Source: a virus
DNA: 64,000 nt
IMG/VR virus record: IMGVR_UViG_3300034105_002260
Reading direction: 5' to 3' (one strand)
Position 1 is the first letter of the stretch, and each line of letters starts with the position of its first letter. Shown here in pieces: positions 3 to 16,885 of the stretch. The position numbers and the translations under genes are program-made. The notes under the pieces were generated by a model. It worked only from the letters and a program-made list of their open reading frames with translations. It was not told the DNA's origin and made no database searches.

Positions 3-644
3 TTAAATGGTCAATGGGGACATTCATTCGCAACATCAATAAATCCTATATGGAACTATTATGGTGTGGGATATGGACTTAGTAGAAATACAGAAAAAAG
101 AACAACAACAATACAAACATTTTATTCTACGGACTTTGATTTCCAAAAAGATATTACACTATCATTCATCGATGTATTCAGAACTAAAAAATGGGGAACA
201 TTTGGATATAGTTTAATTGCATCAAAATCTTTTTGGGGAACATATGAAGGTCAATGGGAAGGAAAATATACAGTAGATGCAAATGGTGATTTTAAAGATT
301 TAATATATCCAATGATACCGGCATCGAGTGAAATGAGTTATAGGGGTATGGCAATGTACACATATACATTCAAAACAAAAAGAGTAAACATCTCACCACA
401 AATATTTGCAATGAGTGATATCTACAAAGTATTCAAAGATGGTACTACATCGGATTTAGCATATGTAGATGATTTCAATTTGGACTTATATTATGGTACA
501 TCTATGGATTGGAAGATAACTAAAAGGTTCATATTAAACACTAACATCAGATATAACACAACTTGGGATAAGTTGTCAGAATCCGTAGGATATAAAAAGG
601 CTAACCCAATCCTATTTATGATAGGAACAAACTTTCAATTTTAA
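3..644 (+). CDS. Outer-membrane beta-barrel-like protein, 5'-truncated; paralog of the C-terminal domain of 4486..5898
   Basis: Frame is open from position 3 (LNGQWGHSF...). Alternating aromatic/hydrophobic strands and C-terminal Phe (GTNFQF). Shares SPQ[IV]F.MS and G.S.D.KI.KRF motifs with 4486..5898. Confidence 0.6.
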   Translation, partial: LNGQWGHSFATSINPIWNYYGVGYGLSRNTEKRTTTIQTFYSTDFDFQKDITLSFIDVFRTKKWGTFGYSLIASKSFWGTYEGQWEGKYTVDANGDFKDLIYPMIPASSEMSYRGMAMYTYTFKTKRVNISPQIFAMSDIYKVFKDGTTSDLAYVDDFNLDLYYGTSMDWKITKRFILNTNIRYNTTWDKLSESVGYKKANPILFMIGTNFQF

Positions 645-991
645 TGAAAAAACTAATATTGATATCGTTGATTTTTTTGGTTGGGTGTACTAAACCTGAG
701 TTACCAATACCAGAGATTAATATCAAAGAAAGGGTATTCGACGTATCCGAAAGTAGTGTAATAAATGGTCAATCTATTTACTTTGATTTACCATCCACAG
801 GTGTTTACACCTTAACTATGACCGATAAAGAAAGTGGACAAGTAATTAGTCGAGAAAGATTTAATGGACAAATTGGTGAAAATATAAAGAAGATTTACAC
901 AAATTCAATACAATCCCAATATTTATATTTAACAATTGAGGACGTTACAAAAAATGAAATAAAAAAAACAATAATAGTATTAAAAAAGTAA
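644..991 (+). CDS. Lipoprotein consisting of a T9SS C-terminal sorting domain-like Ig fold
   Basis: Signal MKKLILISLIFLVG-C. Remainder (YTLTMTDKESGQVISRE...GEN.KKIYTNSI...YLYLTI...KKTIIVLKK) resembles the type A CTD pattern but lacks YPNP. Confidence 0.55.
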   Translation: MKKLILISLIFLVGCTKPELPIPEINIKERVFDVSESSVINGQSIYFDLPSTGVYTLTMTDKESGQVISRERFNGQIGENIKKIYTNSIQSQYLYLTIEDVTKNEIKKTIIVLKK

Positions 992-1001
992 AAAGGACAA
1001 A

Positions 1002-1373
1002 ATGAAAAAAATATTAATTGTATCGATGGGGTTGATTATTCTTGGTGGATGTACTAAGGATGATTTTGTACCTGAAGTTAAACAAATAAAACCAGAATTG
1101 GCTATTACTTCATTATCGGGTATTAAGTTAGAAACCTCATTTGTGACTTCAGAAGTTGCTATGAATGTTAAACTTGTGTCCGCAGGTACTGTAACCATTA
1201 AAATTACAGATATATCAAATAGAGTGGTCTCTAAAGAACAGGTAGAGGTTAAATCAGGTGATAATATATTAAAAATATATACATCGGCACTCCCCCCATC
1301 AGCATATAGAGTTGGTCTTTATGATTCTAATAACAATTTATTAGGAATTACAGATTTCAATAAAATTCAATAA
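1002..1373 (+). CDS. Lipoprotein with T9SS C-terminal sorting domain-like fold
   Basis: Lipobox LGG-C followed by TKDD. VTIKITDISNRVV...GDNILKIYTSALPPSAYRVGL resembles a CTD. Paralog of 644..991. Confidence 0.55.
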   Translation: MKKILIVSMGLIILGGCTKDDFVPEVKQIKPELAITSLSGIKLETSFVTSEVAMNVKLVSAGTVTIKITDISNRVVSKEQVEVKSGDNILKIYTSALPPSAYRVGLYDSNNNLLGITDFNKIQ

Positions 1374-1413
1374 AATTCAATAAATAAAATAAATAAATTA
1401 AAAAACAAATATT

Positions 1414-2097
1414 ATGGCAGACAGAAACGGAGACGGAATAGTTTATCATCGCTCAGATTGTGGAGATAACTACGTAAGATTTTATGGGTTTGGTGGAGAC
1501 GGTCCTTGTTCAACGTGTGAAACGTGGGGACTTACCGATAAAGCAATAAGGTACATACACGACCATCCTGAAATAAATCATAGACTTGAAGATGTCGTGG
1601 GTGGAGAGTGGGATGATAAAGTTGTTCCAATTTTTAAAGAAGCTTATGAAGAAGTAAAAGAAGGTGTAATAGACGCATACAACTGGGCGGATGCAAATGC
1701 TTGTAATATAGGTGTAACAGCCGCAATCTCAGCAGGAATTGTTTATGCCTTCACACCAGAACCAGCAAATCCAGCGGCGGTAGCGACATCAACAACTCTA
1801 TCGGTAATGGCATCAACTATTACTAGTATGGCGGTTAAAGTTGCTGTAGTTGGAGAAATGAGTGAAATAATAAAAGATGCGTTTTTACTAATGCCATATG
1901 TTAGTGATAGTATTGACCACACATTATTAAAAAATATAATTTCAAATTGTTTGGCTAAGAGTTTAGATTCTGCGGCGTTATGGGCAACACCAGCTGGAGT
2001 TGGTATTGCAATTGGGTCAGCATTTGCACCTGTAATAGCAGATTTAATATGTAAAAAAACCTGTCCTGAAGGATTTACTAAAGCGTTTGGTGCATAA
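1414..2097 (+). CDS. Hypothetical Cys-containing protein with hydrophobic Ala/Gly-rich helices, apparently an inserted gene
   Basis: 227-aa ORF flanked by a diverged duplicate of the 3' end of the upstream gene. Confidence 0.6.
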   Translation: MADRNGDGIVYHRSDCGDNYVRFYGFGGDGPCSTCETWGLTDKAIRYIHDHPEINHRLEDVVGGEWDDKVVPIFKEAYEEVKEGVIDAYNWADANACNIGVTAAISAGIVYAFTPEPANPAAVATSTTLSVMASTITSMAVKVAVVGEMSEIIKDAFLLMPYVSDSIDHTLLKNIISNCLAKSLDSAALWATPAGVGIAIGSAFAPVIADLICKKTCPEGFTKAFGA

Positions 2098-2158
2098 TAT
2101 AAAACAATTAGGAATATCAGACTTTAATAAAATAAACTAAAAAATTAAAAAAAATACA

Positions 2159-2470
2159 ATGTCAGAAGAAGTAGAACAATCAGAAGGAACTTGGTCGGGT
2201 TTAAAAAAGACAATAATTGGGGTTGCTGGAACATTAGTAACCGCGGGTGGAGTATGGTTAACAACACTTTTAGGTGGTAGTGACAAAGCAGAACCCGCTC
2301 CAGTACAAGCTGCACCAGTAATTAATATTACAAATTCACAAACTCAACAACAAGCTGCAGGTGGTGGTAAAACTGTTATAATTAAAGAAAAAGAAACAGT
2401 TAAAGAACCCGCTAAGCCCGTTAAAAAGAAAGACGGTGACGAATTTAAAGAGGAAGCACCTAAGTGGTAA
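2159..2470 (+). CDS. Single-pass membrane protein
   Basis: TM segment IIGVAGTLVTAGGVWLTTLLGG followed by a low-complexity tail. Confidence 0.65.
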   Translation: MSEEVEQSEGTWSGLKKTIIGVAGTLVTAGGVWLTTLLGGSDKAEPAPVQAAPVINITNSQTQQQAAGGGKTVIIKEKETVKEPAKPVKKKDGDEFKEEAPKW

Positions 2471-2551
2471 TATATTACCAAATAGGAACGATATTATTCT
2501 TTATGGGATTAATATCATTCTTAATAAAATGTAGTTTTAAATTAAAAAAAG

Positions 2552-3181
2552 ATGAGTGAAAAACAACAACCACCAAGTGGTTTTAAGGATTTATTAAGTA
2601 ATATGATGGCCAGAAGATGGTACATCACCGCATTGGTATTGGGTGGTTTTATGTTTATAATAGGAGGAATGTTCTTCGCTATATTAAATAAATCAGCAAT
2701 TGAAGGAGAATGGAAAGAACTTCTATTATTGTTATTGGGGGCATTCATTGGTAGTTATGGTAAAATCATTGACTATTGGTTTAGTGATACTGATAAGGAT
2801 AAGATGTTAGTTCAAAAAATGGATGAAGAAGATGGTACAACATTAAGTAATACCGCCGATTTACCAGATACCCCACCAAACAATACACCAATTATACCTG
2901 AAGCATTTCAAACCGCTATTCAAAACTCAAAAATTGAAAAGGTAAACGATACATTTGAACAAGTACCAACTACCCAACCAAGAACAGGTATTGAAGTTGA
3001 TGAAGATGGTGATGGTATAATGGATGGTATTGATTTCGATGGTGATGGTAAAATCGATATGTATTTCGCACACAGACAATGTGAACACGTTTGGGGTGAC
3101 TTAGATGGTGATGGAACTGAAGAATGCTTAAAATGTGGTAAGGTTAAAGACGAAATGGCCGAAATACACATAGAAGGATAA
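2552..3181 (+). CDS. Two-TM membrane protein with C-terminal DxDxDG calcium-binding-like motifs
   Basis: Two hydrophobic helices; DEDGDG, DFDGDG and DLDGDG motifs; CEH...CLKC. Confidence 0.65.
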   Translation: MSEKQQPPSGFKDLLSNMMARRWYITALVLGGFMFIIGGMFFAILNKSAIEGEWKELLLLLLGAFIGSYGKIIDYWFSDTDKDKMLVQKMDEEDGTTLSNTADLPDTPPNNTPIIPEAFQTAIQNSKIEKVNDTFEQVPTTQPRTGIEVDEDGDGIMDGIDFDGDGKIDMYFAHRQCEHVWGDLDGDGTEECLKCGKVKDEMAEIHIEG

Positions 3182-3211
3182 TAAACACAAAAAACACAAA
3201 AAACACAAATT

Positions 3212-3484
3212 ATGGGATTTTTAAAAGAATTATTTAACGACAGCAACACAATTAACGAAAAGTCAGTTGTGGGATTTTCATCATTTATCTGTATGGTTAT
3301 CGCTTTAGCGGTTGATCTTATTACGGGATATTTTGGAAAACCATTAGTAATCAACGAATTTATATTCAACGGATTCTTAGTAATAACACTAGGTGCCTTT
3401 GGTATTGCATCGGTTGATAAGTACATAAATAACAAACACAACAAACCAGACGAAGAAACTGAAGAAGTTGAAAATGAAGGTTAA
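3212..3484 (+). CDS. Small two-TM membrane protein (holin-like topology)
   Basis: Two TM helices and a charged C-terminal tail. Confidence 0.5.
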   Translation: MGFLKELFNDSNTINEKSVVGFSSFICMVIALAVDLITGYFGKPLVINEFIFNGFLVITLGAFGIASVDKYINNKHNKPDEETEEVENEG

Positions 3485-3511
3485 AAAAGGGGGAGTTTTA
3501 CTCCCCTTTTT
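3485..3511 (+). terminator. Intrinsic terminator
   Basis: aaaaggggGAGttttaCTCccctttt hairpin with flanking A and T tracts. Confidence 0.75.
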
Positions 3512-3512
3512 G

Positions 3513-3520
3513 TATTTATA
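3513..3520 (+). promoter_or_regulatory. Putative late promoter TATTTATA for the CsgG-FeoA-barrel operon
   Basis: Same motif precedes the structural genes. Confidence 0.6.
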
Positions 3521-3536
3521 AATAAGATAAAAAATT

Positions 3537-4256
3537 ATGAAAAAAATATTAATATTATTGGTTTGTGTGTTGATTGGGTTTACCTCCAACTCCCAAACTA
3601 TAGGTAAAACTCAAACAGAACAATATAAAGCATCATTTGAAACAGCTATGGATATATCTAAATTTTTAGATTATGATGGTCCACAAATACCTATTCAAAT
3701 ATTAAAGGCTGGTATTTCAGACGAGATGTATGAGATGTATCCAGAACTTAAAGAAAAACGTGTTGGTTTAGGTGTTGCAAATATTTCTATGGAATATCTT
3801 GAAAACCTAAATAGATTCAAATTTACCGAGGATAAGACAGAAATTAAGAATAGAATGGTTAAACAATTCCAAGCATCTCAATCAGGAATTTCTGAAAATA
3901 AATTAGACGGTAGAGGTAAAATTAATTTAGCGGAATATTTTGTAACTATCGAATGTTATGATTATTCAGTATCTGAAGATGAAACAATTAACATACAAAA
4001 CGGTGTGAAAAATTTAATGGTTACTCGTATTGGTTTACAGGTTAGATTTACAAATGCGGAAACTGGTGTTGTATTTGGAGCATCAGGATTAGGTGAGGCC
4101 AAAACAACAAGAGAATTAACGTTATTATCAGATGCAACCGTAGATGAAATGAAGTTCAATCAATCAACAATATCAATTGCAACTAAAAAAGCTTTAGATA
4201 TTGCTTGTGCTAGAATATTAGATAGAATGATTAAAAAACAAATATTTTTAAAATAA
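3537..4256 (+). CDS. CsgG/HfaB-family (curli transport channel-like) protein
   Basis: Signal peptide; GLGVANI..E.L.NLNRF, G.INLAEYFV, IGLQVRFTNAETG and FNQSTISIATKKAL match the CsgG-like pattern. Confidence 0.7.
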   Translation: MKKILILLVCVLIGFTSNSQTIGKTQTEQYKASFETAMDISKFLDYDGPQIPIQILKAGISDEMYEMYPELKEKRVGLGVANISMEYLENLNRFKFTEDKTEIKNRMVKQFQASQSGISENKLDGRGKINLAEYFVTIECYDYSVSEDETINIQNGVKNLMVTRIGLQVRFTNAETGVVFGASGLGEAKTTRELTLLSDATVDEMKFNQSTISIATKKALDIACARILDRMIKKQIFLK

Positions 4257-4489
4257 TGTCACAAGAAGTTATAGATGTACCACAATCAATAAATTGTGAA
4301 AATTGTAATCCTTGTATTAGACTGAGATTAATGGAATTAGGTTTTATACAGGGTCAAGAAATTGAAGTTGGTGGTGAAAAATTAGGACTTCATATTGTAC
4401 ATCTTTTATCCAATAATGGTACTATTTCACAAACAATCGCACTAAGAAAAGAAGAATTAGGTAGAATCTGCCTAAAAGAAAAAAAATGA
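4256..4489 (+). CDS. FeoA-family SH3 protein with N-terminal CxxCxxC
   Basis: RLRLMELGFIQGQEIEV...IALRKEEL matches the FeoA signature. Confidence 0.7.
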   Translation: MSQEVIDVPQSINCENCNPCIRLRLMELGFIQGQEIEVGGEKLGLHIVHLLSNNGTISQTIALRKEELGRICLKEKK

Positions 4490-5898
4490 AAAAATGTTAT
4501 ATCCTATTTTTATTCTTTTTATTCCTACTATCATTTCAAAACGTAAATGGTCAGTCTGTCGTTACACAAACTTTTATTGATAAATGTAGTGGAGAAGTAA
4601 AATTTGCAACTACCACATATATTAATGGACAGGCGGTCATAAGTTTTTATAATCAAATTAAAACATTCACACAAGCAGAAGTTAATGCTGGAGTTGCTCA
4701 AATTTGGTTATTATCCGTTAAGACATCTTATGAAGCAATAACCTGTCCAGTGAATAATCCAGTAGTAACACAAACCGTACAACAAACAGTAAGTCAAGCT
4801 GCAGCCGCAGCAGCGGCCGCCGCCGCAAGTTCTGCAGCGTCCTCAGCCGCATCCTCGGCAGCAAGTTCTGCGGCATCTTCATCAGCATCATCCGCGGCAA
4901 GTAGTAGTGCAAGTTCTGCAGCTGCAAGTTCTGCGTCAACCCCACCAAGTACTGGGTCATCAGCACCACCAAGTGGTGGAAGTAGTAACTCGTCATCAAG
5001 TGGAAGTAGTTCATCCTCATCAAGTGGAGGATCATCTGAATCTAAAACAGAAACTAAAACTGAATCAAAATCGGAAAGTAGTTCAGAATCAAAAAGTGAA
5101 TCAAAGTCAGAGAGTAAAAGTGAAGAAAAGAAAGAAGAATCTAAATCCGAATCTAAAGAAGAAAATAAGGAAGAGAAAAAATCTGACGAAAAGAAAGAAG
5201 AAAAGAAGGAAGAGAAAAAAGAAGAAAAAAAGAAACAACAAAATATGAACCCGATGCTTTTAGCGTCAGATTTAACAAGTGCACAATCTATAGATGGAAG
5301 ATATAGTGTAATGTTATCTATGGGTGTAAGTAAAACATCTATGGCAGGAGATAAGTCATTTGGTGTTAGTGGAATTGTATGGTCAACATTAGATCAGTAT
5401 GTTGTTTCATCAAGTTATACCAAAATGGATTTTAGTAATGGTAAATTGAATGCAATTCACTCGTATGGTGCGTCGGTAGCATATTTGAAAGGTACTTGGA
5501 TGACTCTTACAACATATACATTTATAAAACCAGATCCTAAAATTGGTACCTATGGTGTTAACGTTGGCGGAATTGGTTTATTAACTGAAAATTTAGAAGG
5601 TAAACGAGATATTAGTATTTCAACATCTTTAGTTGGTTTTTGGACTAAACCATTTCAATATAGTAAAAAATTAACATTATCCCCACAGGTTTTTGTAATG
5701 TCATCACCAATAAGTTATCAACCATCTGTAGGTTCAACTAATATTAATAGAACTATTGGGTTTTTGATTGGTAGTAGTTTTGATTATAAAATTTCAAAAC
5801 GTTTTGGTTTTAGTTTTAATTATAAGGCAAATTTCAGTACTGATCCAGGTTCTCAATTATTACACAATTTCTTGGTTGGGTCGAGGGTAATACTTTAA
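4486..5898 (+). CDS. Secreted/outer-membrane protein: signal peptide, N-domain, Ala/Ser and Glu/Lys low-complexity stalk, C-terminal beta-barrel-like domain
   Basis: Hydrophobic N-terminus, (SSAA)n and EEKK repeats, amphipathic strands. Confidence 0.65.
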   Translation: MKKCYILFLFFLFLLSFQNVNGQSVVTQTFIDKCSGEVKFATTTYINGQAVISFYNQIKTFTQAEVNAGVAQIWLLSVKTSYEAITCPVNNPVVTQTVQQTVSQAAAAAAAAAASSAASSAASSAASSAASSSASSAASSSASSAAASSASTPPSTGSSAPPSGGSSNSSSSGSSSSSSSGGSSESKTETKTESKSESSSESKSESKSESKSEEKKEESKSESKEENKEEKKSDEKKEEKKEEKKEEKKKQQNMNPMLLASDLTSAQSIDGRYSVMLSMGVSKTSMAGDKSFGVSGIVWSTLDQYVVSSSYTKMDFSNGKLNAIHSYGASVAYLKGTWMTLTTYTFIKPDPKIGTYGVNVGGIGLLTENLEGKRDISISTSLVGFWTKPFQYSKKLTLSPQVFVMSSPISYQPSVGSTNINRTIGFLIGSSFDYKISKRFGFSFNYKANFSTDPGSQLLHNFLVGSRVIL

Positions 5899-5912: not shown

Positions 5913-5942
5913 AAAATCCCCAGTAGAAACCGGGGATTTTTT
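5913..5942. terminator. Bidirectional intrinsic terminator
   Basis: aaaatcccc-agtagaaacc-ggggatttt between convergent genes. Confidence 0.75.
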
Positions 5943-6412: not shown

Positions 6413-6889
6413 TTATTTTTTAATTCTTTTCCACCTCGCCTCTCGTGCCTCCGGACTCAACATAAAGACCTCCTCAATTCTATGTGGTATTTCATTTCTA
6501 CCACAACTTTCAGTTAACTTACAATTCTTCAAATAATTGTTAATATAACCCATCATATTATGACTACCAATTGGGTTTGCTGAATGTACGTATATTGGAG
6601 GTAAAGGAATGTTAATGTCCATACTAAGATTGACTAAAAATTTACAACAATCATATCCAGTTTTTTCTTCTATGTTTTCGTAATTGAGTTTGTAATTGTC
6701 TTTTACGTTATTATAGTATTCAATCATTGCACTCTCACCTAAGTCGTGATCCAAAGATATCCTCCCAACGTTATCTAATCCGTGTGTTTCAATTAAAGAT
6801 ACAAACTGATAGTAGTCCCTGGCAACTATCCAACCATCTTCTAATGGGGTCCTTACGTCGTCTAGATATATGTTAATTTTATTGTTCAT
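6413..6889 (-). CDS. Cyclic-phosphate-processing receiver-like domain protein
   Basis: YLDDVR.P, ISLDHDLG, TGYD, VHSANP.G motifs; coupled to an RNA ligase gene. Confidence 0.75.
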   Translation of the reverse strand: MNNKINIYLDDVRTPLEDGWIVARDYYQFVSLIETHGLDNVGRISLDHDLGESAMIEYYNNVKDNYKLNYENIEEKTGYDCCKFLVNLSMDINIPLPPIYVHSANPIGSHNMMGYINNYLKNCKLTESCGRNEIPHRIEEVFMLSPEAREARWKRIKK

Positions 6890-8084
6890 TCTTAAATGGT
6901 TTTGAATATTTTGGTTTAACAGATTTCCAGATTATTTCGTCTACTTTGGAATAATTTTTATCCCACATTGAAAATAGTATCGGTCTTAAAATTTCTTCTT
7001 GTTTCATTGCAAATTCAGCAAATTCTTTTTTAGATGGTTCTGAGTCCTTGTCATTAAATTTACCATATCTAAAACCATCGTGTAATTTACCTGCTCGTTC
7101 TCTTAATTGAAAACATCCATATCTTAAATCTCTAACGGTGGTTTTTACCCACTCATTAAATTCATCTGGAACTTTTTCTAGTAATTCATCAAATGGTTTA
7201 TTATCTTTCAGATATTCCCATATATCTTTATTTGATATATTTGTAATAATTCTATGTAACCTAACATATTCCTCTCCCTTAATTTTGATTCTACTAATTG
7301 GTTTAGTGTTAAATCTTAACACATATCCTTCATTGTCGTTTGATATATTATTTTTTAGTGATTCAATATCATCACCTAAATTATATGATTTAACAAGTTC
7401 AAACCCGCACCCACGAATTAGACCATCACTATGTTCTAATGGCATTTCAAAATCATCAATCATAGTATGAACAATACCAAGTAAGATTAATTTTTCTTCG
7501 GGGCCGTAATTAACAACTATTCTATTTTCTGGATATATTATTTCAAATAGATATGTGTATCCAGGATGTAAAGAATCTATATTATACTTTTTTAAAATTT
7601 CAGCACCTTTAATCGCTTGTTCTGATGTGAACGATCCTCTCGAAGCAAAAACCCAATCACCTTTTGTTTTTGGGGTTGGTTCATAGTATGGGTTATCATA
7701 ATCAGGTAAATTGTTTGAATCAAAGAACCTTTCCATACCAGTTTCATAGTTGTTATTAAACCATATGTTATATCTTTTTTCGTCGGTTAATTCTTCTTCA
7801 TAATAAAAAAGTATACCTAACGATCCATCCATTTTCTCATAAACTTTAAATTCACCACTAGGTGGTGAATCCATTTCTTCTAAGTTAAAGAATTTTTTAA
7901 ATGGTCTCGCAACTATTTGACCTTTTGAATCGGTAACCAATCCACGACACTGCATAGTAATGTCATCCCATAGTTTTTCATATTGAACTTTTTGGGAATA
8001 ATTCCAAATAGTTAAATCTTTAGTTGGGTGAGTTTGTTTTATTAACAAACCATCTGCGTAATATTTTTCTAATTTTTCTAACAC
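6879..8084 (-). CDS. T4 Rnl1-like RNA ligase
   Basis: QCRGLV, ARPFKKFFN, adenylation motif EKMDGSLG, FEIIYPENRIVV, EGYV, KIKGEEY. Confidence 0.9.
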   Translation of the reverse strand: MLEKLEKYYADGLLIKQTHPTKDLTIWNYSQKVQYEKLWDDITMQCRGLVTDSKGQIVARPFKKFFNLEEMDSPPSGEFKVYEKMDGSLGILFYYEEELTDEKRYNIWFNNNYETGMERFFDSNNLPDYDNPYYEPTPKTKGDWVFASRGSFTSEQAIKGAEILKKYNIDSLHPGYTYLFEIIYPENRIVVNYGPEEKLILLGIVHTMIDDFEMPLEHSDGLIRGCGFELVKSYNLGDDIESLKNNISNDNEGYVLRFNTKPISRIKIKGEEYVRLHRIITNISNKDIWEYLKDNKPFDELLEKVPDEFNEWVKTTVRDLRYGCFQLRERAGKLHDGFRYGKFNDKDSEPSKKEFAEFAMKQEEILRPILFSMWDKNYSKVDEIIWKSVKPKYSKPFKNEQ

Positions 8085-9026: not shown

Positions 9027-11045
9027 TTACAATAATTTTTTTACAATCGTTAGTTTTTCAGCCTTATACTTTAAAGTAATATTCTCATTTTCTTTAATAT
9101 TTCCTCGTAATATTTCTTCACTTAGGAAATCTTCACATAAATTTTGAATGATACGTTTTAAAGGTCTTGCACCATATTCCTCTTGGGTGTTTAATTCATA
9201 AATTCTATCAATTACAGATTTATCAAAAGTAATCTTATAACCCTTATCGGTTAATCTATTATTTAATTTACCAACCTCAATTTGAATAATCTTTTTAAGA
9301 GTTTCTTCGTTAAGTGCGTTAAATAAAATAATATCATCAATACGATTTAGGAATTCAGGATTAAATTGTTGTTTTAATGCCTTTTGTATGATTGATCTTT
9401 TAACCTCAGATTTTTGTTGTTCGCTCGATACAGTGGTAAATCCAACCCCACCCCCAAAATCAGAAACACGCTTTGCTCCAACGTTAGAAGTCATAATAAT
9501 GATTGTGTTGGTGAAGTTTACTTTTCTACCAAATGAATCGGTTAAATGTCCCTCATCTAAAATTTGTAATAAAATATTGAATACATCTTTATGTGCTTTC
9601 TCAATTTCATCAAATAAAATCACAGAGAAGGGGTTATTTTTAACTTTCTCAGTCAATTGACCTCCTTCATCATATCCAACATAACCTGGAGGAGAACCAA
9701 TTAGTTTTGATACATTGTGTTTTTCCATAAACTCACTCATATCAACTCGAATTATTTTTTCGGGATCACCAAACAATAACTCAGCAATTGATTTAGCTAA
9801 GAATGTTTTACCAACACCCGTGGAACCAATAAAAATAAATGAACCAATTGGTTTATTTGCTTCTTTAATACCCACACGGTTTCTTCTGATTGATTTAGAG
9901 ATAGTTGCAATTGCGTCATCTTGTCCGATTACCTTAGCAGATAAAAGAGATTCCATTTTTAAAAGTTTCTCAGTTTCTTTAGAGTCTAATTTAGTAATTG
10001 GAACACCTGTCATATCTGATATAATATTATAAACATCATCAACAGTAACTGGTGTTTTATTTTCTTTTAAACTATCTGACCATTTTTGTTTCTCATCTTC
10101 AAGTTTAGTGATTAACTTTCTTTCCTCATCCCTTAATTTTGCGGCTTGTTCATAATTTTGACTCTTAACCACTTGAATCTTTTTTTCTTTAATTTCATCA
10201 ACTGATTTTTTCAATTTCTCAATTGACTCTGGTATTCTACTACTTACTCTTTTTTCCGAACCCAATTCATCTAATACATCAATAGCTTTATCTGGAAATT
10301 GTCTATCTGTAATGTATCTATTTGAAAGTTTGACAACTGTTTCAATAACATTATCTTCATATTGTACCTTATGAAACGTTTCGTATGATGATTTAAGATT
10401 TTTTAATATCTCAATTGTTTCAGATTGATTTGGTTCCTTTAGAATGATTTTTTGAAATCTCCTTACAAGTGCCGAATCTTTTTCTAAATGTTTCTTATAT
10501 TCATCAAAAGTAGTTGCTCCAATACATTGAATCTCACCTCTTGCAAGTGCTGGTTTTAATATGTTAGCAGCATCCATTGCACCACTAGCATTTCCCGCTC
10601 CAACCATTGTATGTAATTCATCAATAAAAACCACAACGTTAGTTACTTGTTGTAACTCATTTAAAATCGCCTTAATCCTTTCTTCAAATTGTCCACGATA
10701 TTTTGTACCCGCAACAAGTGAAGTTAAATCAAGGGAAACGACTCTCTTATCCAAAAGATTGGTGGGACATTCACCCTTATAAATCATTAAAGCCAATTTT
10801 TCAACTAACGCAGTTTTACCCACACCAGCGTCTCCCACGATAACTGCATTATTTTTTTTCTTACGGGACAGAATCTGTGCAATTCTTTTCACTTCTTTAT
10901 CTCGACCAATTACTGGGTCAATTTTACCTTCTTCCGCAATCTTAGTTAGGTCCCTTGAGAAATTATCTAAAATTGGTGTTTCTGAACCTTTACGAACTTT
11001 CCTTGGGTTAGTTTGTGGTCCTTCTTCAAAAAAATCTACAGCCAT
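9027..11045 (-). CDS. clpC: ClpC-like AAA+ chaperone lacking the N-terminal Clp_N domain
   Basis: Two AAA modules ([13 protein letters not shown]; [16 protein letters not shown]), UVR coiled coil, VGF ClpP-docking loop. Start placed at MAVDFF, downstream of the promoter. Confidence 0.85.
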
Positions 11046-11066
11046 ATTAATAAGTTTTATTTTGTA

Positions 11067-11097
11067 CAAATGTAACATAAATTATTCTAAAAACAAA
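11067..11097 (-). promoter_or_regulatory. Bacteroidota sigmaA-type promoter for clpC
   Basis: TTTG-N19-TACATTTG on the minus strand. Confidence 0.65.
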
Positions 11098-16872: not shown

Positions 16873-16885
16873 TGTATTTATATAT

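Follow-up and report, generated by a model that had tools for sequence, protein, structure and literature searches.

Little is known of the way in which phages of Bacteroidota breach or remodel the outer membrane of their hosts, or of why aquatic myophages keep relatives of CsgG without curli subunits. Both questions are raised by a row of ten genes, named g1-g10, which lies at positions 3-5898 of a 64,000 nt stretch (the window) of IMG/VR virus record IMGVR_UViG_3300034105_002260. A preliminary description of this DNA had taken the row for one export or surface-display apparatus built by the phage around a CsgG channel. Our analysis has shown that the conserved unit is formed by g5, g8 and g10, recurring in about 500 IMG/VR contigs and in Flavobacterium phage vB_FspM_immuto (immuto), and that this core is surrounded by variable accessory envelope genes, namely g1, g2, g3, g4, g6 and the FeoA gene g9. 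The cassette is not a curli-type secretion machine. We tentatively favour the reading that g5, g8 and g10 may be joined, late in infection, in an assembly which spans the envelope and acts on the outer membrane when the cell is lysed. The features of the row are listed below with their positions in the window and their strand.

3-644, plus strand: g1, last 213 residues of a secreted outer-membrane beta-barrel protein of about 297 residues, cut by the window edge
644-991, plus strand: g2, lipoprotein of 115 residues (LVGC) with a beta-sandwich-like domain
1002-1373, plus strand: g3, lipoprotein of 123 residues (LGGC-TKDD) with a DUF3244-like domain
1414-2097, plus strand: g4, sporadic accessory protein of 227 residues with an Ala/Gly-rich hydrophobic C-terminal half
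2159-2470, plus strand: g5, core gene, type II inner-membrane protein of 103 residues
2552-3181, plus strand: g6, 209 residues, two transmembrane helices and three DxDGDG repeats
3212-3484, plus strand: g7, holin-like protein of 90 residues, two transmembrane helices and a highly charged C-terminal tail
3485-3511, plus strand: terminator-like hairpin of 12 pairs and a T run, ending the g1-g7 transcription unit
3513-3524, plus strand: promoter-like motif TATTTATAAATA, 24 nt upstream of the g8 ATG
3537-4256, plus strand: g8, secreted CsgG-fold protein of 239 residues with a signal peptide and without a lipobox
4256-4489, plus strand: g9, FeoA-domain protein of 77 residues without a signal peptide, cytoplasmic
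4486-4770, plus strand: g10 (whole gene 4486-5898), signal peptide (residues 1-23) and N-domain (about residues 24-95)
4771-5244, plus strand: g10, disordered stalk of (AASS)n, poly-Ser, (ESK)n and (EEKK)n
5245-5898, plus strand: g10, C-domain, predicted 12-stranded outer-membrane beta-barrel
5913-5940, minus strand: terminator-like hairpin between g10 and the convergent minus-strand genes

The window belongs to a large myophage in which terminase, portal, major head protein, DNA polymerase, tail sheath and a gp63-type RNA ligase were recognised, and its only named relative at the DNA level is immuto, with a genome of 160 kb. Since phage core genes fill the window, the g1-g10 region is not host contamination. 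All ten open reading frames were found on the plus strand at the positions given in the preliminary description, and eight of the ten encode exported or membrane products, for which lipoboxes, hydrophobic spans and signal peptides were recovered. The gene row is phage-encoded and directed to the envelope.

The g8 family is very abundant in aquatic metagenomes, with 6292 cluster representatives at E<=1e-3; in IMG/VR, 511 loci were confirmed, on contigs which reach about 335 kb. Conservation was counted in the best 80 of the 511 loci, picked by similarity to g8, and the identity of g8 is therefore biased upward. Three genes are near-universal in this set: g8 was present in 80 of 80 loci (median identity 87%, range 83-97%), g5 in 73 (61%) and g10 in 65 (55%). 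The remaining genes were found in 56 loci for g6 (median identity 67%), 39 for g3 (62%), 37 for g2 (57%), 30 for g7 (73%), 25 for g1 (83%), 10 for g4 (70%) and only 6 for g9 (61%). The most conserved gene of the cassette is g8, its neighbours in the same loci being much more diverged despite the g8-biased choice. Conservation of the neighbourhood in related phages was thus observed for the core, and the idea of one fixed ten-gene apparatus has to be given up; the CsgG-FeoA-barrel operon of the preliminary description is present here as a local variant of the g5-g8-g10 unit. In immuto the core is kept as genes 16-18, with identities of 65% for g5 and 49-50% for g8, and these are annotated as hypothetical. 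In a large group of Flavobacteriia phages, few genes are as well conserved as the g8 family, yet every member of it is annotated 'hypothetical', and the cultured pair of immuto and Flavobacterium sp. LMO8 makes the same core experimentally accessible.

The core is also set apart by its transcription signals. The terminator hairpin after g7 is followed by TATTTATAAATA, and TATTTATA at 3513 stands just past this hairpin and before g8-g10, as the preliminary description had remarked in giving these genes a motif of their own. In coding orientation TATTTATA occurs at 21 sites (window 920-58518), 16 of them 11-44 nt before the start of an open reading frame, and it precedes the genes for terminase (16886), portal (18716) and sheath (53846), with example sites at 16875, 18704 and 53802. 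Its reverse complement is the T4 late consensus TATAAATA, and the motif is kept 17-34 nt upstream of the start in 15 of 61 distinct g8 upstream regions of relatives. TATTTATA can be regarded as a candidate phage promoter element. As it is common to structural genes and g8-g10, the g8-g10 unit is probably late and shares the timing of the structural genes.

The product of g8 has been assigned through its homologues. No match to g8 itself was found in Pfam (PF03783 being absent at E<=1), PHROGs or NCBIfam. An exhaustive search yielded 207 cluster representatives of homologues; PF03783 is matched by 14 of 34 aligned homologues (best 1.9e-17) and LpoB by 6 of the 34, the family profile finds E. 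coli CsgG in the PDB with an E of 6e-4 over residues 1-186/1-195, and a bacterial homologue cluster, 28% identical, carries the NCBI name CsgG/HfaB. Judged by these profiles, CsgG/HfaB (PF03783) is the nearest sequence family of g8, membership being transitive and distant. For the AF2 model of g8, with a predicted local distance difference test (pLDDT) value of 79 and a predicted TM-score (pTM) of 0.73, the best Foldseek matches were the CsgG chains 4uv2/4uv3 (E ~1e-6, TM 0.45-0.48). VIA also placed CsgG first (Z 11.0-11.6 over 160-178 residues), the runners-up being an LptE-like protein (10.4), PelC (10.0) and LptE (8.8). The modelled fold class is secure, which bears out the earlier naming of g8 as CsgG-like, and by analogy with CsgG, PelC and TraT the protein is likely to assemble into a ring which lies against the inner face of the outer membrane or is set into it.

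The likeness of g8 to PelC and LptE, which it matches nearly as well as CsgG, extends to the PelC-PelB and LptE-LptD pairs (5t0z, 9h80, 5ixm) in that g8 is encoded alongside a dedicated outer-membrane barrel protein, a pairing taken from gene order only. The partner barrel g10 has 12 strands in comparison to 16 or 26 in PelB and LptD, with no TPR or LptD-type periplasmic domain, and the sequence profiles of g8 lead to CsgG and then to LpoB, not to PelC or LptE. A complex prediction with three copies of g8 and the g10 N-domain gave no support (score 0.02) and is uninformative either way on binding. Fusions of CsgG-like domains were found with caspase or kinase domains and not with g10; these are distant g8 homologues fused to caspase (Peptidase_C14), with one fused to a Ser/Thr kinase (P0330, P0335, P0348, P0388). 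On L083, the single bacterial contig examined for the context of a g8 homologue, there was no g10-like neighbour.

The second outer-membrane component of the core is g10, which starts with a cleavable signal peptide. Its N-domain is predicted to have four strands and helices, with Cys33 and Cys87 conserved (alignment A2, AF2 model). It is followed by a disordered stalk of about 150 residues (pLDDT <50 at residues 121-253), the length of which differs among relatives (alignment A2). In the C-domain, AF2 strands were found at residues 257-469 (pLDDT ~75-90), and 12 strands were counted from the DSSP string, not from coordinates. The best solved match of this barrel in Foldseek is the NanC/KdgM porin class (TMt 0.68-0.69 for NanC, 0.63-0.65 for KdgM) and the second-best fold match is the amyloid exporter FapF (0.56), with E ~1e-6; COG4313 and autotransporter beta-domains are also matched at E ~1e-6, and the Atlas search gave Phenol_MetA_deg (TM 0.76) and autotransporter barrels. 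The modelled barrel hence resembles NanC/KdgM, FapF and autotransporter beta-domains in strand number and shape (TMt 0.56-0.69), and the order of N-terminal region, linker and C-terminal barrel is that of FapF and type Va autotransporters. Unlike the known 12-strand barrels, g10 has a long Ser/Ala/Glu/Lys disordered stalk as linker and no family membership by sequence: in Pfam only low-complexity matches were obtained for g10 and none for g1, giving no membership in the KdgM/NanC, FapF or autotransporter families. Further, the two distant Cys residues of the N-domain would fit a periplasmic domain rather than the secreted passenger of an autotransporter. No usable match to the N-domain was obtained from the Atlas, and none to the barrel by tblastn against GenBank phages.

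The N-domain is the part of g10 by which its counterparts are recognised. Its hidden Markov model (HMM) matches the gene which comes immediately after the CsgG-like one in immuto (1e-12) and in two relatives, the marine contig L082 (8e-14) and L084 (9e-17); immuto gp18 shares with g10 the N-domain alone at the sequence level, and the barrels of the three g10-like genes are too diverged for the barrel HMM, yet end in outer-membrane protein (OMP)-type signals. The C-domain HMM matches g1 (E 4.6e-8, profile positions 90-200), and therefore the barrels of g10 and g1 are paralogous, in line with the two paralogous barrel domains described earlier. Full-length relatives of g1 have 294-299 residues with a signal peptide and end in the OMP-type signal ...GTNFQF, and its nearest named Atlas clusters are outer-membrane barrels throughout (score 0.94). 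PorP/SprF-type anchors of the type IX secretion system (T9SS) were considered for g1 and g10 and rejected, with no Pfam match and the family absent from the Atlas neighbours. A family of small secreted proteins (146-170 residues, immuto gp19 type) was observed directly after the g10-like gene in immuto and L082 and one gene further in L084 (L001:11071-11526, L084:10318-10758, L082:2556-3068); its sequence pattern may be that of a hairpin-less CsgG/LptE-type core, and a homologue search found none of these proteins in the window.

The kinship of g8 with CsgG brings in true type VIII (curli-like) secretion, in which g8 would be a nonameric CsgG pore exporting an amyloid-forming or unfolded phage substrate, for example the low-complexity part of g10. 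The nearest relative of g8 in sequence and fold is CsgG, g10 has a long unfolded segment, and FapF is an amyloid exporter; this explanation is nevertheless highly improbable. No match to CsgA/B/C/E/F was found among the ten proteins at E<=1, which upholds the earlier remark that the locus is not an ordinary curli operon, and no amyloid-type repeats were seen. Moreover, g8 shares with E. coli CsgG (PF03783; 4uv2, 4uv3, 6l7a, 7brm) the fold, the profile match and the export to the envelope, whereas its identity is only about 10%, it has no CsgE, CsgF or CsgA/B partners and its signal is of signal-peptidase-I type. In the cleavable signal peptide, which reads ...LIGFTSNSQ, the cleavage site lacks a Cys, and the same was found for immuto gp17; a G/A-C lipobox is present in the more distant relatives L082 and L084 and in bacterial homologues. 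In comparison to CsgG of E. coli MG1655 (alignment A4), hairpin 1 carries a family-wide deletion of 5-6 residues. The AF2 model has long strands at 134-152, 156-173 and 179-194, followed by a coil at 195-203 (pLDDT ~60); a fourth strand is absent, and hairpin 2 is thus modelled, with low confidence, as one strand and coil where the second hairpin should return. A wholly missing hairpin 2 was considered for the shorter C-terminal third of g8 and rejected, as much of the difference is the extra C-terminal tail of CsgG, of about 36 residues (alignment A4). The hydropathy of the g8 hairpin, compared by hand with that of CsgG hairpin 1, gave no discrimination. Of the CsgG channel of the preliminary description, the fold has stood and a CsgG-type pore is only putative, given the absent lipobox, the short hairpin 1 and the ambiguous hairpin 2.

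The third core component, g5, has one hydrophobic span, an N-terminal transmembrane helix, followed by a periplasmic Pro/Ala/Gln/Lys-rich low-complexity stretch (by inspection). It ends in ...KKxGDEFKEEAPKW, the final W being kept in 57 of 57 distinct relatives and the final PKW in 50 of the 57. In immuto and L084 the g5-like gene overlaps the CsgG-like gene, and in L082 a protein with a transmembrane helix and a coiled-coil-like, heptad-like charged helix stands in place of g5. The neighbouring g7 has two hydrophobic spans and, by inspection, the architecture of a holin, two transmembrane helices with a charged tail, and no holin family was matched. This lysis context had been omitted from the preliminary description. 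A g7-type gene lies directly before a PG_binding_1+GH19 endolysin gene in L038 and before a GH19 endolysin gene in L016, and in L084 a similar protein of 87 residues directly precedes an endolysin-like gene (phrog_33083, 1.6e-12). The CsgG-like gene follows downstream of the endolysin gene, directly in L038 and several genes on in L016 and L084, and in 21 of the 80 loci g8 is preceded, at a distance of about 1-7.5 kb, by a GH19 endolysin gene. In lambda-type cassettes, spanins are carried downstream of the endolysin.

These arrangements are part of the basis for the reading which we prefer. The cassette products would pass through Sec into the host envelope, where g5 would be anchored in the inner membrane and span the periplasm on its low-complexity arm ending in the invariant PKW peptide. 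A ring of CsgG-fold g8 would lie on, or be set into, the inner face of the outer membrane, and the g10 barrel would sit in the outer membrane carrying its small two-Cys domain on the long disordered stalk. Together g5, g8 and g10 would make up one envelope-spanning complex, made late. As infection ends, this complex may act on the integrity or permeability of the outer membrane, either assisting the spanin step or replacing it. The parallel is with two-component spanins (lambda Rz/Rz1, T4 PseT.3/PseT.2), in which also a type II inner-membrane gene overlaps or precedes the gene for an outer-membrane-directed protein, the pair being downstream of holin-like and endolysin genes in some of the relatives of our phage. 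A bolder version, in which the three proteins would serve Bacteroidota phages in place of spanins, as a so far unrecognised three-part system for breaching the outer membrane, with g5 docking by its PKW peptide, appears unlikely.

A number of points weigh against a role at lysis. No endolysin was found in the window in a search with the endolysins of the relatives. The term 'late' is taken from the shared motif, and the putative association of g5, g8 and g10 is drawn from conservation and gene linkage. Known spanins are small and fast-evolving, and their inner-membrane members (i-spanins) have coiled coils. In contrast, g5 has no coiled coil by inspection, and g8 is a folded, very conserved CsgG-fold protein of 220 residues, whereas the outer-membrane spanin (o-spanin) is a lipoprotein of about 50 residues. 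There is no lipid anchor on g8 here, though the L082 and L084 relatives have one. The barrel g10 is a third component which two-component spanins do not have, and we know of no lysis mechanism with a stalked 12-strand barrel. Finally, secreted lectin/cohesin proteins, one of them with a T9SS tail, and TonB-receptor-like genes in the same row would fit display or uptake at least equally.

Display is the main rival, and we consider it possible though somewhat doubtful. In this explanation the barrels g1 and g10, the lipoproteins g2 and g3 and the CsgG-fold ring would anchor or export phage lectin/cohesin proteins onto the infected cell and re-dress its surface, with receptor masking, keeping of the progeny off debris or aggregation of neighbouring cells as possible effects. 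In relatives, a secreted C-type lectin and cohesin protein of 762-869 residues is encoded directly upstream of g1; in immuto, lectin, hypothetical and cohesin genes come directly before genes 16-18; and in L084 a cohesin protein with Por_Secre_tail (the T9SS tail) is encoded before the g6-, g5- and g8-like genes. The form of g10, in which a long stalk joins a domain to the barrel, would also suit this role. On the other hand, no lectin or cohesin gene is present in the window, binding of such proteins to the cassette is only proposed, and neither g1 nor g10 was recognised as a PorP/SprF-type anchor. Late expression would leave little time for exclusion, and the near-universal genes are g5, g8 and g10, not those of the adhesins.

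The lipoproteins g2 and g3 also bear on display. They are paralogous (E 4e-11), each consisting of a lipobox and one domain with no passenger domain, and the lipobox Cys (LVGC in g2, LGGC in g3) is invariant in 35 relatives. The preliminary description had called them lipoproteins with the C-terminal domain (CTD) of T9SS cargo; the lipoprotein part stands, and the CTD label is sub-threshold. Por_Secre_tail (the type A CTD, PF18962) is matched by g3 at E 0.035 with 14.8 bits (cut-off 27) and by 10 of 35 relatives, all sub-threshold with a best E of 0.0038. DUF3244 is matched by g3 at E 4.9e-5 with 23.7 bits (cut-off 25) and by 19 of the 35 relatives of the g2/g3 family, with a best value of 3.2e-5 and all below the cut-off of 25. 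Of these two sub-threshold assignments, DUF3244 appears to fit g2 and g3 better than the T9SS CTD. The sequence C-x-K-D-D directly after the lipobox Cys is kept in the g3 family, which we take to resemble the surface-export signal of Bacteroidota lipoproteins and which counts in favour of display, while g2 has C-T-K-P-E. Given this difference between K-D-D and K-P-E after the Cys, one paralogue may be facing outward and the other inward.

The junctions g7|g8 and g8|g10 were found to take varied inserts, namely endolysin, class 3 lipase, pairs of TonB-receptor-like and lipoprotein genes, glycosyltransferase and FeoA. In 6 loci the holin-like and CsgG-like genes are separated by a gene for a class 3 lipase (PF01764, E 1e-27; L063:6763-7506), and no homologue of this lipase was found in the window. 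In seven related contigs a TonB-dependent-receptor-like gene (Plug and OMP_b-brl_3, about 750-825 residues), then a lipoprotein gene of about 400 residues, stands beside the CsgG-like gene in a SusC/SusD-like layout (L016:4309-7766, L023, L038, L039, L052, L053, L081). In the window the insert between g8 and g10 is the accessory gene g9, for which the FeoA assignment of the preliminary description has held: the match to FeoA (PF04023) is 23.6 bits against a cut-off of 23.0 (E 5.7e-5), its homologues (n=98) mostly carry PF04023, and its best PDB matches are FeoA, though weak. No FeoB turned up among the proteins scanned, no window-wide search for FeoB having been made.

Such inserts would find a place in an uptake conduit, in which g8 and/or the NanC/KdgM-like barrels would act as extra outer-membrane pores for ions or small solutes feeding phage production, with FeoA and the TonB-receptor-like genes as add-ons. 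The porin class of the best solved match of g10, FeoA between g8 and g10 in 6 loci and the Plug/OMP_b-brl_3 and lipoprotein pairs beside g8 in 7 loci are in favour of this explanation. Phage-encoded outer-membrane barrels such as g10 and g1 are moreover a known class, Pfam having a family of cyanophage barrels, Phage_OMP. We consider an uptake role distinctly unlikely. A metabolic function early in infection is at odds with the shared late motif, FeoA and the receptor-like pairs are inserted in few loci, pore formation by g8 is only putative, and a pore would leave g5 and the N-domain and stalk of g10 unexplained.

Uptake has also been proposed, as an idea without test, for the CsgG of pelagimyophages (PMC7029224). 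In the literature, CsgG/CsgF clusters without CsgA/B are published for pelagimyophages of the HTVC008M group (PMC7029224) and for the Methylophilales phage Melnitz (PMC9004378); for phage CsgG a role in lysis timing has been proposed without test (PMC9004378), and 'sibling capture' is a further untested idea for these clusters (PMC7029224, PMC9004378). The claim of an undescribed system has to be narrowed by these reports, whereas the form carried by Flavobacteriia phages, with its partners g5 and g10, was not encountered in the literature. Like the published clusters, the cassette belongs to a large aquatic T4-like myophage with a CsgG relative and no CsgA/B, and is set among hypothetical exported proteins in a variable region. 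It differs from them in having no CsgF here and in g8 being far more divergent, with neither a direct PF03783 match nor a lipobox. Its fixed partners, the putative g5 tether with C-terminal PKW and the stalked 12-strand barrel g10, are new, its hosts are Flavobacteriia, and it is interleaved with holin-like and endolysin genes.

Two accessory genes remain to be described. The product of g6 has two hydrophobic spans, in agreement with the membrane protein of the preliminary description, while calcium binding is suggested by the conserved DxDGDG motifs only. In the alignment of 18 relatives, the second transmembrane helix and a juxtamembrane block are nearly invariant, and an acidic tail, the three DxDGDG repeats and a CxH...CxxC motif are conserved. 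No family was found above threshold, and dockerin or TSP3 domains, considered for the repeats, were rejected, as there was no family match at E<=1 except a weak FG-GAP_3. In the case of g4, no family match was obtained in Pfam, PHROGs or NCBIfam. Its position varies among relatives, being before g1 in L029 and L080, and as it is both sporadic and variable in position, it behaves as a mobile accessory gene. This agrees with a separate observation of an insertion scar in the preliminary description. The cassette is flanked on the opposite strand by genes for a Clp-type ATPase (phrog_4871, E 3e-245) and the gp63-type RNA ligase (phrog_562), at window positions 9027-11078 and 6879-8084 respectively, both on the minus strand.

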